From an uncultured virus (IMG/VR IMGVR_UViG_3300036715_000622) (taxonomy: Duplodnaviria; Heunggongvirae; Uroviricota; Caudoviricetes), in the IMG/VR virus record IMGVR_UViG_3300036715_000622: a stretch of 64,000 bases of DNA, one strand, 5' to 3'. Below the pieces are notes generated by a model that had not been told where the DNA came from, made no database searches, and worked only from the letters and a program-made list of their open reading frames with translations. A program made the position numbers and the translations under genes. Below, piece by piece: positions 52,620 through 58,202 of this stretch. How positions within the stretch are numbered: position 1 is the stretch's first letter; every line of letters starts with the position of its first letter.

Positions 52620-53561
52620 TTACAACCCCACTACTTTCCAGCCCTTCTCAAAGTAAAAAGATAGTCTAGTCATAGTCTGTTTCTTCTCTGAATAACCTTT
52701 AAATTGCATATCAATAACTACTGGATCCAATTTACCTGGAGATAACCTCATTACTCTACCAATTACTTGCTCTAGAAGCCCAGCATTAGCAATAGGGGTA
52801 GTTAATATTACACAGCTAAGACTATTAACTGATATACCTTCTGCAAAAATGCCTCTACTACCACATATTACCTTCTTATTGCCTTCTGATACTTCTTTAA
52901 TAACTTCCTCTCTATCCTTAGTTGCTCCAATAATTAAGATAGAAGAGTCACCAAGTATTTTATGTACACCTTCTAAAAATTCTGTTCTATCACCAATTAC
53001 TAGTACTTTGTGCCCCATACTAACATGCTTTGCGGCTATATATGCAATCAATTGCTGGTACTCTGGGTCATATAATAGCTTATTCATCTTATCAGCCCAA
53101 CTCTTTCCAATTGGTAAGCTAATATTAGTAGGATATAGATGTATAGTGGGATCCATTGTATTACTCTGAGCAGGCTTATAAACTTTAGAGCCAAAAAAGT
53201 CTCTAAAATATACATGCTTACCGTCCCTTCGTGTCATAGTACCACTAAGACCTATCTTATAAGTAGCATGGCTACTATCAATAATACCTGTGAAGGTAGA
53301 AGCAGGAGTATGGTGTCCTTCATCCATAATCAGTGTACCAAACTCTTTACTTATCTGATCTAGTTTAAGTACTAGAGACTGTACATTACCAACTACTATA
53401 GGGGCATCTATATTATATTTTCCAGCGCCTATAATTCCTGGCTCAATACCGTATAATACCTTTACTTCATTAATCCACTGATCTCTTAAAGCTGATGTAT
53501 GTGTAACTACTAAAGTCTTTTGACCTAGTTTATACGCAATATGTAGGGCTGTGAACGTTTT
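52620..53561 (-). CDS. D10: SF2 helicase (T5 D10-like), exon 2
   Basis: Frame open from 53561: KTFTALHIA...DEGHH...GLSGT...EGIS...EQVIGRVMR. Confidence 0.9.
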   Translation of the reverse strand, partial: KTFTALHIAYKLGQKTLVVTHTSALRDQWINEVKVLYGIEPGIIGAGKYNIDAPIVVGNVQSLVLKLDQISKEFGTLIMDEGHHTPASTFTGIIDSSHATYKIGLSGTMTRRDGKHVYFRDFFGSKVYKPAQSNTMDPTIHLYPTNISLPIGKSWADKMNKLLYDPEYQQLIAYIAAKHVSMGHKVLVIGDRTEFLEGVHKILGDSSILIIGATKDREEVIKEVSEGNKKVICGSRGIFAEGISVNSLSCVILTTPIANAGLLEQVIGRVMRLSPGKLDPVVIDMQFKGYSEKKQTMTRLSFYFEKGWKVVGL

Positions 53562-53984
53562 CTGTGGACTATACCTTTATCTTAAAACTAATGATGCTAC
53601 TTAGTAGAATTTTTATATAACAAGTTAATTAACTGTAAGATTGAAGACTTCACCTATTTGATTAAAAGTTAGTCCTAAGTCTCTTGCTTCTAAAAACTCT
53701 TCTTTATTCATTATGTATCCCATATGTGGTTATGATACAATATAAGATATTCGCCGTATTATACTAAAATTCTTACATTATTTATCTATTATACTCTAGC
53801 CGACAAATTTTTGCAAGTATATTTTTGTATCCCAGTCTACTTCCGTTCTGGAAGTACTGTGAGTCTCTGAACCATTTGAAAGCATTCCTGCTAACTCTGG
53901 CTGCTGATTATCCTTATTAAAGGCCTTCCAGCAATTGAGCGAATTTATTACCCTTTAATTACTTAAAGGGAGGGCAAAACATTT
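53562..53984 (-). mobile_element. Group I self-splicing intron (423 nt) in the D10 helicase gene
   Basis: P AAUUGCUGGAA (53926-53936), Q AAUCAGCAGCC (53899-53909), R GGUUCAGAGACU (53862-53873), S AAGGUAUAGUCC (53566-53577); 5' exon ends in U, intron ends in G; splicing restores GWG|KT. Confidence 0.92.
53625..53711 (-). pseudogene. Truncated intron-encoded ORF (HTH-like N-terminus, probable homing endonuclease remnant)
   Basis: MNKEEFLEARDLGLTFNQIGEVFNLTVN*; GGA SD; own TTGCAA-17-TATAAT promoter at 53788-53816. Confidence 0.6.
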
Positions 53985-54317
53985 ACCCCAACCAACAAGC
54001 GCATTAATAAAACAACTACTATCTACTTGGTCGTATATCTCTTGCTGCTCCTCATATAGTGGAAAGATAGGTTCAGGAAAATCAGCGAAGTTTAATACCC
54101 GCTTATCCGCAATCTCATACCCTTCTGGAATTAGATCTACCCTACCAGAAGGTATTGATACTATCTTAGGTGTAACCATTTTATAGTTACGAATTGTTTC
54201 AACATTGCGGTACTTACCCTCTCCTATAATTATTTGATAAGTTAGGGCATCAAATAACTCTTTCTTCTTTTCTGGTAAGTCCATATAGATTCGATTAGAT
54301 ATTATTGCTTTACTCAT
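53985..54317 (-). CDS. D10: SF2 helicase (T5 D10-like), exon 1
   Basis: KAIISNRIY...SIPSGR.DLIP...FINALVGWG, breaks inside Walker A. Confidence 0.9.
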
Positions 54318-54844
54318 ATTTTTCTTACTGTATCCTTATGTAATTCTTTAAAAAAGCCATAAAGAATATAACTATGTTTACCTACTTTTAATACTCCAGC
54401 GTACTTCTCCTCAGTATTGGGAGGGTATAGGCACATATACCTGCCTGGAATATCTTGAATCTCTACTAAAGAGGCTGACGGGGTTCTATGTGTAATTAAT
54501 ATCTTCTTAAATATAAGAGGCACTATTTTACTCTTTTTATAATTAAAAAGCTTGCCTAGCGAGTCAATGAACCACATCTTTGGTGTTGCTAACTTTAGCA
54601 AGTCCCCAGGAAAAAATATTGCGTGCTGTAACTTATGAAGTTTGGCGCCGGTACCAGAGATTCTGAGCCTGCGAAGGCTGAGTTTATCTCCGGTAATATT
54701 CCTATCATCAATGATTTTAACTGAGGGTGTAATACTCTTGTCATCTTCTCGTTTAATAGTAAAGTAGAAAACTACACCATCCTCTATAGTGGGAGGGTGT
54801 AGTCCTACTTTATATACGGGCCAAGCAATCTCCGATAATTTCAT
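54314..54844 (-). CDS. Conserved T5-like hypothetical protein downstream of DNA polymerase
   Basis: I.WPVY...IIDDRN..G..L..RRL...FIDS.GKLF.Y.K...RKI; start set at MKLSEI. Confidence 0.7.
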   Translation of the reverse strand: MKLSEIAWPVYKVGLHPPTIEDGVVFYFTIKREDDKSITPSVKIIDDRNITGDKLSLRRLRISGTGAKLHKLQHAIFFPGDLLKLATPKMWFIDSLGKLFNYKKSKIVPLIFKKILITHRTPSASLVEIQDIPGRYMCLYPPNTEEKYAGVLKVGKHSYILYGFFKELHKDTVRKI

Positions 54845-57800
54845 ATTTCTTCTCAAATTTGTCGAAGGAGTAGTCCTGACCAACATCTTGATCTACACCA
54901 ATAGGCTGACCTTGGATGGAGCAACCACGGTCTTTTTGCGTATTACGCGTAAGAATTTCCCTAGCCTGCTCAACTAAATCGTCTCGCACAATACATACTA
55001 TTGAATCGTGTACTAACATGAATACTTTAGCATCCATGTTATTAGCTCTAAATTCATTAGCAGTATCAATAGCCCCTAATAGATTTACGTCACTACATAC
55101 TGATTGAATTGTAGCATTTACTCCGCTGCGAACCTCGTGAGCAGCGATGCCTTTATCAGTACTAAATACGTTAGGCAAACGACGTTTACGCCCAAAGAAG
55201 GAATACACGTACCCATTAGCTTTAATGAACTCTTGAGTATCAGTAAGCCATTTCTTCAGTCCTTTAAAAGTATTAAAGTACTGCTTAATAACTTGTTGTG
55301 CATCCTCTAGCGTAAGATTACCACCTTCTTTGTTAACTGTATCTGCTACTTTTTGCGGCCCAGAGCCATATAAAATCCCGAATGTTACAGCCTTTGCTGC
55401 TTGCCTATCTAAAGAAAATAACTTCTTAACATCCTCGACTGCGCAGGGTAAGTTAAAAACCTGTTTAGCAATTGTAGAGTGAAAATCTCCCCCCTGTTTA
55501 AATACGTTCTGAAGTGCCTTATCACCACTAAGAACTGCAGCATAGTAAACTTCACCAGTCTGCAAGTCTTGAGAGATTATCTTATACCCTGGAGGAGCTT
55601 GTATACATCCTTTGATAATAGGATCATCTCTAGGTATCTGCTGAGCGTTAAACTTCCCACTACTGCTAAGGCGGCCGCTGGTAGTAAAAGTAAGATTAAA
55701 ATTAGTACGAATACGACCATCTTTATCTAGTTCCGGTAAAATCTTGCTAATGTAAGAGCTCTTAATCTTCCCAAGCTGGCGAACTTTCAAAATCGCAGCA
55801 GGCAATGGGTGCTCTTCGCTCAACTCTTCCAAAACCTCTGCATCTGTTGAAAGAGCGCCAGTCTTAGTTAACTTACCAGTAGGCGTAAGCTTAAGATAAT
55901 CAAAGAGTACCTTTCTAAGTTGTTGCACAGAATTTGGGTTAAATATTGCTCCAGTATCCTGCTCGAATTGTTTAACCTCAGCAAATCCATATACCTCTTC
56001 CTTAGCTTCTTGAATCCATTTATCTAGATATTTTTCCGATGCTAGTAGTCTTTCTTCTGACATTGGGATACCTACTTCTTCCATATTCATTAGAAACTCT
56101 ACACCGGGAATCAAAATATTATCATATACCCACTTTAGTTTTGGCTGCTTATCAATAAGTGGTTTAAACTTATAGTGCAGTTCTAGTGTTACTGCAGTGT
56201 CAATACAATTATGTACTAATCCCACATCTGTAAAAAAACAATGATTATTCTCTACGTTAATACACCATTTAGTGGAGTACCCGCGCTTATTTACTGGAGG
56301 GTTCCAAGGTACCTTTTTATAAATAATTGCATAATAGGGTTTATCCCCTATAGTATCCCAATAGTACGTATTAACTAGTTTACGATACTGCTCTGGTATC
56401 TTATAGGCACAGTCTGTATGAATATACGGGGCTATAGATTTAAAGAAGTTATCTTGAAATTCTCTATCCCAAGTAAAAAATTGATTATTTTTCTCACTAT
56501 CCTCAAAAAATCTAGCTCCCTTTAAGCCTAAAACTTCCAAACGCTCTATCATAATACGTCTTTCTGTATCAGACATAGTTCTAGACCAAATCCTAGGGGC
56601 ACTACCCGCTAGATTACCATCATCCATATACCAAACTGCAATTGCCTTAATATTTAAGTTACTAGAAAAATCCGTAGTGATTTTAGGCTTTTGTACCTTT
56701 GTGCCTTCTCTAAATATACTGCTGCGAAACAAATCAGTATATAATAAAGAATACTCTGAATAATACTGATAAATATCTTGCCTTCTTCCATCTACATCCC
56801 CTACAATTACTTTAACCTTAGTGCAGCCTAGAGCTTCTGCCTTAAACTTAGCATAATTTTTTCTAGAGGCTGCCTGACTTACCATAAATCCTGCACCAGA
56901 AGTATTCCTAGAATCAAATCGGCCGTCTCCTAACATAGAGCCATACAGTATCTGGTAACTATCGGGTGTTAAATCAAATTCCTGCGAGAGTATTCTATCG
57001 CCTACTTGTATAGAGGATACCTCTGACCATCCTCTAGATAGTAGTACTTTATGATCTGAAGTAAATTTTGGTCCACGGTATATTCCACTATCTTTTATAG
57101 TTTCTGTAGTATACATACCCGTAACAATAGAATACCACTCTTTACTAGGATGTGTCTGTTTTACCCAACCATTAATTCTGCTATCTTCGTATTGGCCTGT
57201 TTTCTCATTATATGATAGTACTTTATCAGTAGATTTAGTACGTACTAATTCTCCAATAGTCTTTTTTGTACCATCTGCCATAAAAACTAGAGAATCATGG
57301 GTTAAACAGGCATATGTACTAATAATATCAAAAGGTATAAGGTCATAAGTAAAGTCAGCAGATAGAATATTATGGGTAGCACAATAGTTCTTCTTAAAGT
57401 CCTCCAATGCTGCATCGTAGTCACCATATGTTGTATACTTAATTGCAAGACCCTTTAGACCGTGTGAACCCTCTGTTTCATCTAATACATAGTGTTCTAC
57501 CATAGTATCATCACAATCTGGAGCAAACTTTAGACTAAAATGATACTCTAGCCACTTTTGGTCAAACTTACGATTATGGAATACAATATGATAGTTCTCA
57601 ATTATTCTTTGTAGAATCTCAATATGTTCGTCAGTAAGGATATCTGTATTAATATACCTACCCTGCTTTAGTTTATAACTAATTGAAATACCCAGAATAT
57701 ACCCATCTCGTGGATATAAGGCAGTAGTTTCAGTATCCACTGCTATTACTTTAGCCCCAGAGTTAAGAACTTCTAGTAAAAACTCCATTGCTTCATCAGC

Positions 57801-58202
57801 ATTATCTATACCTTTAAAATCACCATCTACTCTAGCTGAAGTAATTTCGCCTTTAATATACTTATTAATTTTATCTACAGCACGTTCAAATTCGGGTTTA
57901 CCTTCTGGTCTAAATGTAAGCATCGCAGGATTACTAATAGGAAGGTATTTATCATCCACTAGAAGTCCTGCAAAGTTAGTAACGGATACTTTCGCTAGAT
58001 GCTTTGTTGCTTCTGAACCTACTGTAATAATGAAATCATAGTCATCTGGATTGAGTTCTAAGTCTACATCTTTTTTAAGAACTTTCTGTAAATATACAGA
58101 GCTTAGGTGTTTAAGGTCAAAATCAAAGTCAAAATACTTTTTATAGTCAGTTCTTATTGGGCATTTGTCGATAACAGCTATTCTTGGAGTTCTTCCATTC
58201 AT
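54810..58202 (-). CDS. Family A DNA polymerase (T5-like) with intein
   Basis: AVDTETT (ExoI), HNRKFD, TSGRLSS, RQAAKAVTFGILYG, LVHDSI; about 763 aa after splicing. Confidence 0.96.
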   Translation of the reverse strand: MNGRTPRIAVIDKCPIRTDYKKYFDFDFDLKHLSSVYLQKVLKKDVDLELNPDDYDFIITVGSEATKHLAKVSVTNFAGLLVDDKYLPISNPAMLTFRPEGKPEFERAVDKINKYIKGEITSARVDGDFKGIDNADEAMEFLLEVLNSGAKVIAVDTETTALYPRDGYILGISISYKLKQGRYINTDILTDEHIEILQRIIENYHIVFHNRKFDQKWLEYHFSLKFAPDCDDTMVEHYVLDETEGSHGLKGLAIKYTTYGDYDAALEDFKKNYCATHNILSADFTYDLIPFDIISTYACLTHDSLVFMADGTKKTIGELVRTKSTDKVLSYNEKTGQYEDSRINGWVKQTHPSKEWYSIVTGMYTTETIKDSGIYRGPKFTSDHKVLLSRGWSEVSSIQVGDRILSQEFDLTPDSYQILYGSMLGDGRFDSRNTSGAGFMVSQAASRKNYAKFKAEALGCTKVKVIVGDVDGRRQDIYQYYSEYSLLYTDLFRSSIFREGTKVQKPKITTDFSSNLNIKAIAVWYMDDGNLAGSAPRIWSRTMSDTERRIMIERLEVLGLKGARFFEDSEKNNQFFTWDREFQDNFFKSIAPYIHTDCAYKIPEQYRKLVNTYYWDTIGDKPYYAIIYKKVPWNPPVNKRGYSTKWCINVENNHCFFTDVGLVHNCIDTAVTLELHYKFKPLIDKQPKLKWVYDNILIPGVEFLMNMEEVGIPMSEERLLASEKYLDKWIQEAKEEVYGFAEVKQFEQDTGAIFNPNSVQQLRKVLFDYLKLTPTGKLTKTGALSTDAEVLEELSEEHPLPAAILKVRQLGKIKSSYISKILPELDKDGRIRTNFNLTFTTSGRLSSSGKFNAQQIPRDDPIIKGCIQAPPGYKIISQDLQTGEVYYAAVLSGDKALQNVFKQGGDFHSTIAKQVFNLPCAVEDVKKLFSLDRQAAKAVTFGILYGSGPQKVADTVNKEGGNLTLEDAQQVIKQYFNTFKGLKKWLTDTQEFIKANGYVYSFFGRKRRLPNVFSTDKGIAAHEVRSGVNATIQSVCSDVNLLGAIDTANEFRANNMDAKVFMLVHDSIVCIVRDDLVEQAREILTRNTQKDRGCSIQGQPIGVDQDVGQDYSFDKFEKKYEIIGDCLARI
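56208..57308 (-). mobile_element. Intein (367 aa) with LAGLIDADG homing endonuclease
   Basis: YA|CLTHDSLVFMADG ... FTSDHKVL ... LYGSMLGDG ... AVWYMDDG ... VENNHCFF...LVHN|CID. Confidence 0.95.

Follow-up and report, generated by a model that had tools for sequence, protein, structure and literature searches.

A probable IA2-like group I intron without P9 in the Walker A motif of a T5 D10-type helicase gene

The T4 td, nrdB and nrdD introns and the Twort introns are examples of group I introns of subgroup IA2, residing in DNA-metabolism genes of phages. Group I introns have long been known from such phage genes (excerpts of PMC8541194 and PMC12350094), and the IA2 introns of phages and bacteria, which include the IStron ribozymes, are characterized by P7.1 and P7.2 between P7 and the 3′ strand of P3 and by an extended domain 9 comprising P9.0, P9.1 and P9.2 (excerpt of PMC4227781). 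We analyzed a 64,000-nucleotide stretch of DNA from an uncultured caudoviricete (IMG/VR record IMGVR_UViG_3300036715_000622; the whole stretch is referred to as the window), in which an insert interrupts the Walker A motif of a gene for a helicase of the phage T5 D10 type. P7.1 and P7.2 are present in this insert and give it an IA2-like architecture, whereas the extended domain 9 is absent from it and from its relatives in other helicase genes. Our analysis makes it highly probable that the insert is an IA2-like group I intron without P9, spliced by means of P1, P10 and its terminal G, and sister to, or derived from, introns in the DNA polymerase genes of T5-like phages.

In group I introns, P9 is counted among the helices of the catalytic P3–P9 domain (PMC3984707). 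The only natural group I intron with a modelled structure lacking P9 that our literature searches found is Pr.rnl.1 of the Prasinoderma coloniale mitochondrion, whose authors consider P9 essential and its absence very unusual (excerpt of PMC3873408); the older subscription literature lies outside these searches and may hold an earlier example. Pr.rnl.1 is an organellar, fragmented and trans-spliced intron of subgroup IB, for which a missing third piece or accessory factors were suspected (same excerpt). In contrast, the helicase introns are contiguous and arranged in cis, are represented by at least 11 sequence variants, and have also lost the presumed P5 partner of P9. Engineered ribozymes whose 3′ domain was deleted are likewise without P9 elements, and their cores remain able to catalyze transesterification; the sunY mini-ribozymes were reportedly made by removing this domain. 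Such constructs were truncated in the laboratory and frequently tested in trans or under high Mg2+, whereas the introns described here form a natural lineage in essential-looking genes. Deletion of P9.2 and P9.0 from a Candida ribozyme had a marginal effect on folding (PMC2588497). Literature searches returned no report of a group I intron in a D10-type helicase. This host gene therefore appears to be new, and its P-loop joins the phage sites invaded by group I introns.

The interrupted helicase gene and the group I core of the insert

The open reading frame (ORF) list divides the helicase between 53955..54317 and 52620..53327 on the minus strand, the same two ORFs from which the original prediction had started, and the gene appears as two truncated ORFs because the intron interrupts it. 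When the insert is removed, exon 1 (111 aa) and exon 2 (313 aa) give a 424-aa helicase in which the Walker A motif GxGKT is restored and DEGHH and motif VI are present. Exon 2 contains the Pfam domains ResIII and Helicase_C and aligns over its full length, with ~46% identity, to annotated helicases of T5-like phages, some of whose records are labelled D10; 2,828 records of the phage collection match it, and 2,586 of these cover at least 80% of it. When they are aligned to the Vibrio phage Ceto and Salmonella phage bobsandoy helicases, the exon pieces meet precisely at the boundary of G[FW]G and KT, without loss or gain of a residue, and both phages have the same succession of polymerase, small ORF and helicase. 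An intron-less environmental homologue with 56% amino acid identity (L004) reads GGCTGGGGCAAAACATTCACAGCCCTACAT / GGCTGGGGCAAAACATTCACAGCC unbroken at the intron site. This uninterrupted gene represents an empty site and therefore places the intron at 53984..53562, a length of 423 nt. The predicted junction GGU|AAA within Walker A and the 424-aa product are thus borne out, and the comparison with intron-less homologues that had been proposed finds Ceto, bobsandoy and L004 continuous at the site. By sequence, the host gene qualifies as a T5 D10-type superfamily 2 helicase; D10 of T5 is a characterized branch-migration helicase (excerpt of PMC5180179). The locus is absent from the closest virus record (G001).

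The insert was compared with the Rfam covariance model RF00028. In E-value mode the model aligned with 53994..53800 at 34.8 bits (E 4.2e-7; gathering score 50), with P1, P2, P3, P4–P6 and the R element in register and the register lost in the long insertions. A 264-nt relative in another helicase gene (L143) scored 71.3 bits, above the gathering score, and in this relative the P9 of the model was forced onto exon 2 with mismatches. The minimum free energy (MFE) of the intron with its flanks corresponds to z = -3.1, none of 100 shuffles being as stable, and the MFE fold recovers P1, P2, P3, P4, P5, P6, P6a, P7.1 and P8. The P3/P7 pseudoknot core, P3 through P8 and the P, Q, R and S elements are present; GTATAGTCC has an exact match within the window only in the intron. 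P1 with its U.G pair, P10, P3 and P8, which had been read from the sequence beforehand, are all found with the strands listed in Table 1.

Searching IMG/VR for the motif of the P7 5′ strand gave at least 121 stretches, most of them introns of other genes. In a subset of these, exon 2 starts AARAC.TTYAC (KTFT), which marks the same helicase site, and a helicase-specific 3′ pattern was found in 12 stretches of IMG/VR and in seven metagenome contigs. With identical copies removed, there are 11 distinct complete helicase introns (the window copy, L128, L129, L130, L131, L132, L137, L138, L141, L143 and L144) and two partial ones (L139 and L146); a further stretch (L136) is a fragment of the window's own phage, on the same contig as L003. 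L143 (712-975, plus strand) is the most compact member of the family, an ORF-less intron with short P7.2 and L8 and the tail AUAAG.

Covariation was assessed in an alignment of eight helicase-intron copies (A2) over 68 pairs in 11 helices; P5 stands outside the formal pair count, and the window copy appears as a gap in the P8 count, owing to a misplacement by MAFFT. Standard pairs occupy 98.0% of cells, versus 86.7% after column shuffling and 35–47% when the partner strand is slid by 1–3 columns. Both sides have changed in 25 of the 68 pairs, versus 11.3 in shuffles, and the covariation score is 0.351 versus 0.117; no observed pairing or covariation value was reached in any of 500 shuffles. 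Compensatory pairs are distributed as P2 7/8, P3 1/7, P6a 4/7, P7.1 6/11, base of P7.2 3/4, P8 3/6 and P10 1/5. The loops of P2 are GUAA, GCGA or GUGA in all family copies, P6a and P5 covary, and P4 and P6 do not vary. The middle pair of P10 is U-A in six copies and C-G in two (L130 and L137), in which the Lys codon has changed synonymously from AAA to AAG and the guide correspondingly from U to C. The U.G wobble of P1 at the 5′ splice site occurs in all eight aligned copies, and the terminal intron base is G in all 11 complete ones. Taken together, the similarity to RF00028, the score of L143 above the gathering threshold and the covariation in P2, P3, P6a, P7.1, P7.2, P8 and P10 support the identification of 53984..53562 as a group I intron in the Walker A motif of a D10-type helicase gene.

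Table 1. Coordinates of the exons, the intron and its structural elements in the window.
Feature	Position	Strand	Details
Helicase exon 1	53985..54317	-	111 aa, ends ...FINALVGWG
P1 5′ strand, exon GGGGU	53985..53989	-	5 pairs, 100% paired; G-U/G-C change at outer pair
Probable group I intron, IA2-like, without P9/P9.0	53562..53984	-	423 nt; RF00028, MFE fold, covariation
Internal guide	53971..53980	-	GUUUU (P10 strand, 53980..53976), then GCCCU (P1 3′ strand, 53975..53971)
P2 hairpin	53951..53970	-	8 bp, GUAA tetraloop; 7/8 pairs compensatory
P3 5′ strand AUUCGCU	53938..53944	-	partner 53755..53749
P4-P5-P6-P6a	53871..53933	-	P4 UGCUGG/UCAGCA; minimal P5 CCUU/AAGG; P6 GCCA/UGGU; P6a GGAA loop
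P7 5′ strand G(A)GACU	53862..53867	-	bulged A; R element GUUCAGAGACU; invariant in family
P7.1	53832..53861	-	lower stem and 7-bp hairpin, AGAAC loop; 6/11 pairs compensatory
P7.2, extended	53761..53830	-	3/4 basal pairs covary; distal part with sigma-70-like site
P3 3′ strand GGCGAAU	53749..53755	-	pairs with 53938..53944
P8 and L8	53579..53748	-	AUCUUA 53748..53743 / UAAGAU 53584..53579; L8 with decayed endonuclease gene
LAGLIDADG ORF remnant	53625..53723	-	32 codons, N-terminal helix-turn-helix-like part only; 58% identity over 26 aa to L128 ORF
J8/7 and P7 3′ strand	53566..53578	-	S element AAAGGUAUAGUCC
3′ tail ACAG	53562..53565	-	ends in terminal G (omega G); no P9/P9.0
Helicase exon 2	52620..53561	-	313 codons and stop; KTFTAL start, KTFTALHIAYKLGQK; first five bases AAAAC = P10 strand

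The 3′ end of the intron and its polymerase sisters

In the window copy the S element AAGGUAUAGUCC is followed only by ACAG up to the end of the intron, as had been noticed when the insert was first described. The same holds for the family: in all 11 complete copies the 3′ strand of P7 (...AGUCC) is followed by 4–8 nt ending in G, namely ACAG (four copies), AUGG, AUAAG (two), ACAAACG, AUGUAAG, AUAAAUG and AAUAAAAG. Tails of this length leave no room for P9 or a P9.0 pairing. When a P9 hairpin was defined as a stem of at least 5 bp with a loop of 3–10 nt, starting no more than 8 nt from the P7 3′ strand, it was found in 65 of 78 distinct non-helicase introns with the same P7 motif; seven of the non-helicase introns without it were inspected and have a 4-bp stem or a longer loop. 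Such a hairpin was found in one of eight helicase-type introns, where it consists of an A/U and G.U run of tail and exon. A hairpin in the 3′ exon as a substitute for P9 was also considered and rejected, since the only candidates are weak runs of A/U or G.U pairs, part of them in the tail, which reach 5 bp or more in one of the eight copies.

P5 is shrunken as well. In ten of the 11 helicase introns it is a hairpin of 12–17 nt with 3–4 bp, and L130 alone has a 22-nt segment of the polymerase type. The combined loss of the loop and of its presumed partner in P5 speaks for a genuine absence of P9 and against its provision from another source.

When the intron was compared by blastn with 50,697 phage records, its P4–P7 core proved to be 76% identical in Providencia phage PR1 and Proteus phage PM135. 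In these T5-like phages the intron lies between two coding sequences (CDSs) annotated as DNA polymerase and beside an endonuclease CDS, and the database annotation of such introns consists of the split polymerase and the endonuclease alone. None of the 30 listed of the 60 matching records has its match in a D10 helicase, which, with the literature searches above, agrees with the view in the original prediction that this gene is an uncommon host. The polymerase introns share with the helicase introns P2, P7.1 with its AGAAC loop, P7.2, an ORF in L8 and the S element AAGGUAUAGUCC. They differ at the 3′ end, where a P9 hairpin capped by a GNRA loop and a P9.0-like pairing precede the terminal G, in the greater length of P5, and in their gene and site, the guide being GUCCC for exon GGGAU (junction as read) and GCCCU for GGGGU in the helicase. 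The 3′ end of the PR1 intron, for example, reads ...AGUCC GCA CCAUAU GAAA AUAUGG AAUUAUG|. All inspected polymerase sisters carry the P9 hairpin, which supports the view, taken in the original prediction, that the minimal 3′ fold is unusual.

Inspection of 18 polymerase-type introns (L005, L006, L009, L016, L017, L027, L042, L046, L052, L054, L055, L065, L069, L075, L078, L081, L086 and L118) revealed that L9 is either GUAA or GAAA and that the P5 segment varies with the loop. GUAA goes with the conserved 22-nt P5 segment, and GAAA, in six of seven cases, with a CUAA...(U/C)AUG arrangement, which we take to resemble the classical 11-nt tetraloop receptor. This joint change of L9 and P5 looks like tetraloop–receptor co-variation.

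In a FastTree phylogeny of 95 distinct 177-nt cores, seven of eight helicase introns form one clade nested among the polymerase introns. The eighth (L043, which is the L130 intron) adjoins L042, the polymerase intron found on its own contig. This contig and one other in IMG/VR (L068/L069) carry a polymerase and a helicase intron ~2 kb apart. The position of L043 beside L042 and its retention of a polymerase-type P5 weakly suggest exchange or recombination between co-resident introns. On this tentative evidence, the helicase introns either descend from the LAGLIDADG-bearing polymerase introns of T5-like phages or form a sister group to them. The target sites GGGAU and GGGGU are alike in the bases read by P1, a likeness that would fit either transposition by reverse splicing or a change in endonuclease specificity.

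The family thus offers at least 11 diverged natural introns without P9, in helicase genes under purifying selection. The helicase and polymerase introns form a natural before-and-after pair for the role of the L9–P5 clamp and of P9.0 in folding and in the choice of the 3′ splice site, and the family permits a test of whether P10 and the terminal G are enough. If they are, the 264-nt L143 intron would be among the most compact protein-free phage ribozymes and a minimal scaffold for RNA-circularization designs.

Splicing and alternative explanations

Both exons are open in all 11 intron-bearing helicase genes, DExH is present in all 11, and the motif VI-like QxxGRxxR in ten, the eleventh gene running off its locus. 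The ratio of nonsynonymous to synonymous substitution rates (dN/dS) is 0.13–0.28, with a median of 0.16, for the 18 of 55 pairs in which it was computable; synonymous sites were saturated elsewhere. The first in-frame ATG of exon 2 lies 78 codons downstream, past Walker A. An exon 2 that has no start codon before Walker A, yet is under selection, implies translation from a spliced message, and this constraint argues for splicing in vivo.

The proposed mechanism is ordinary two-step, guanosine-initiated splicing. The 5′ splice site would be set by P1, formed by exon GGGGU and guide GCCCU with the U.G pair at the cleavage site, and the 3′ splice site would be set without P9 or P9.0, by the 5-bp P10 (GUUUU/AAAAC) and the terminal G on a 3-nt tether. 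Removal of P9.0 or P10 alone is reported not to prevent the second step, and removal of both to block it (excerpt of PMC11417360); as far as that excerpt goes, the single dispensability suits an intron in which P10 is strong and covaries. We infer three things: the intron is spliced, no protein is required for this, and P10 together with the terminal G is enough. In this history the lineage has lost P9, most members have also lost the P5 segment that matches the P9 tetraloop of the sister lineage, and the window copy has in addition lost nearly all of the endonuclease gene in L8. A fuller version, to which we give an even chance of being right, holds that the lineage shed domain 9 and then the P5 receptor, that it self-splices accurately with a 5-bp P10 and a terminal G 3–7 nt from P7, and that it originated from a polymerase intron that moved, possibly by reverse splicing, to the look-alike GGGNU site in the helicase P-loop.

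Several observations weigh against a self-sufficient, active intron at this locus. At the gathering threshold of 50 bits, RF00028 matched nothing in the whole window, so that the covariance-model check proposed with the original prediction succeeded in E-value mode and failed at the curated cut-off. P9-bearing polymerase sister introns also fall below this cut-off (25.6 and 34.3 bits), and the low score of the window copy is accordingly attributed to the long P7.2 and L8 insertions rather than to the absence of P9. P1, P4, P6 and P7 are invariant in the family, and although they agree with the Rfam consensus, covariation says nothing about these helices. The exon constraint is a family-wide figure and not one for the window copy alone. 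No RNA sequencing run containing the full locus was found. RNA run X22 yielded an 88-nt contig with two mismatches that covers 53837..53916 only; confined to the conserved core and mismatched, it probably comes from a related intron. Neither in this run nor in runs X2, X3 and X4 was there any joint, whether of a spliced product or of an intron-less DNA form. P9 has been counted among the essential paired regions of group I introns (excerpt of PMC3873408), the terminal G, tethered to the 3′ strand of P7 by 3 nt, must reach the G-binding pair in P7, and a P9-less copy without an endonuclease or maturase candidate of its own might splice poorly or need a helper.

Could the locus hold no intron at all? 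The insert would then be a spacer between separately expressed helicase halves, the second of them driven by a sigma-70-like site (TTGCAA-17-TATAAT, 53816..53788, minus strand, matching at 10 of 12 positions), and the first half does stop nine codons past the splice point. We consider this scarcely credible, because the split falls between G and K of GxGKT, the start of exon 2 has no start codon and its first ATG comes after Walker A, the insert has group I sequence and covarying structure, and promoter-like matches are no commoner than in shuffles (4 found in the stretch, 4.5 expected). Somewhat less improbable, although still very unlikely, is that the window copy is a relic that no longer splices, in a phage whose helicase has become a pseudogene or is dispensable. 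Such decay would account for the several deletions in L8 and the Rfam score under the gathering score, and the lack of an RNA run with the locus is in keeping with it. However, the deletions are confined to the L8 loop; the window copy keeps every invariant column and pair of the family, its sole mismatches being two inner P6a pairs that are common to 4–5 of the eight copies; its exons are open over 111 and 313 codons with DExH and motif VI intact; the same sequence occurs at high contig depth in the DNA contigs of three further runs; and D10 itself has a characterized function in T5 (excerpt of PMC5180179).

More serious, though in our judgment unlikely, is the possibility that the intron is genuine and depends on protein. 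Without P9 and the L9–P5 clamp it would need a protein in order to fold or to finish joining the exons, and the window copy would rely on a factor acting in trans, for which the LAGLIDADG maturase of a related intron or intein and a host chaperone are candidates. Maturase activity of LAGLIDADG proteins is known for organellar group I introns, L8 of most helicase introns contains an intact LAGLIDADG ORF (252–263 aa in nine of the 11 complete copies), and a second LAGLIDADG domain lies in the polymerase intein of the window phage. The absence of P9, there called essential, was taken to imply accessory factors in Prasinoderma (excerpt of PMC3873408). Set against this are two independent ORF-less copies with intact exons, that of the window (423 nt) and that of L143 (264 nt); a strong P10 of 5 bp with a compensatory change, which fits a choice of the 3′ splice site by RNA only; and the report that P9.0 and P10 are singly dispensable (excerpt of PMC11417360). 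Splicing through P1, P10 and the terminal G of a P9-less group I intron remains the reading that we favor.

The endonuclease gene and neighboring features

The ORF in L8 carries two LAGLIDADG motifs and is retained in nine of the ten complete copies other than that of the window; the one that was scanned (L128, 256 aa) matches LAGLIDADG_3 with E 7.8e-12. Over its full length the L8 endonuclease is homologous to that of the PR1 polymerase intron (29% identity, E 2e-26). L8 of the window copy retains the first ~30 codons and the last ~40 nt of this ORF, the rest having been removed by more than one deletion, and the 32-codon remnant has no match in Pfam. Because nearly all of the endonuclease gene is lost, the window copy is presumably immobile, and it is presumably still spliced. 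The ORF was lost independently in L143, so that this one family documents the usual life cycle of such elements, invasion and then decay of the endonuclease gene, which took place independently in the 423-nt and the 264-nt copy.

The sigma-70-like site lies in P7.2, ~65 nt upstream of the endonuclease start, and may be an internal promoter for the endonuclease gene. An insert with TTGAAA or TTGCAA, a 17-nt spacer and TATAAT or TAAAAT occurs in five of the eight aligned copies and is absent from the short P7.2 of L130, L131 and L137. A promoter function is not established, as the number of such sites equals the shuffle expectation and the conservation in five of eight copies may reflect shared ancestry. 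Just upstream of the endonuclease start, a hairpin with CCACAUAUGG (~53740..53705, minus strand; A2 columns ~285-320) is conserved throughout the eight aligned copies, with changes in the outer part of its stem. It may extend P8 structurally, or it may cover the ribosome-binding site of the endonuclease gene.

In DNA run X2 a loose contig end was seen at 53633, where a contig of depth 47, versus 272, shares 53633..53662 and then continues into full-length endonuclease sequence. The contig of lower depth indicates that an ORF-bearing allele or a close relative coexists in that sample. The contigs break at 53565-53582 and 53828-53857 because the intron has these segments in common with polymerase-type introns that other phages in the samples carry. 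Salmonella phage bobsandoy has a free-standing CDS annotated as homing endonuclease directly downstream of its uninterrupted D10-type helicase (L002 2510-3043), so that the helicase neighborhood draws homing endonuclease genes in cultured T5-like phages too.

The polymerase gene of the window (54810..58202, minus strand) encodes a 1130-aa family A DNA polymerase in one open frame, with an intein-like insert at about residues 307-665. This insert begins with C and ends in HN followed by C; it matches LAGLIDADG_2 (E 2.6e-13) and, weakly and below the cut-off, Intein_splicing (E 5e-4). The polymerase of the window phage thus appears to have an intein where its relatives have a group I intron.

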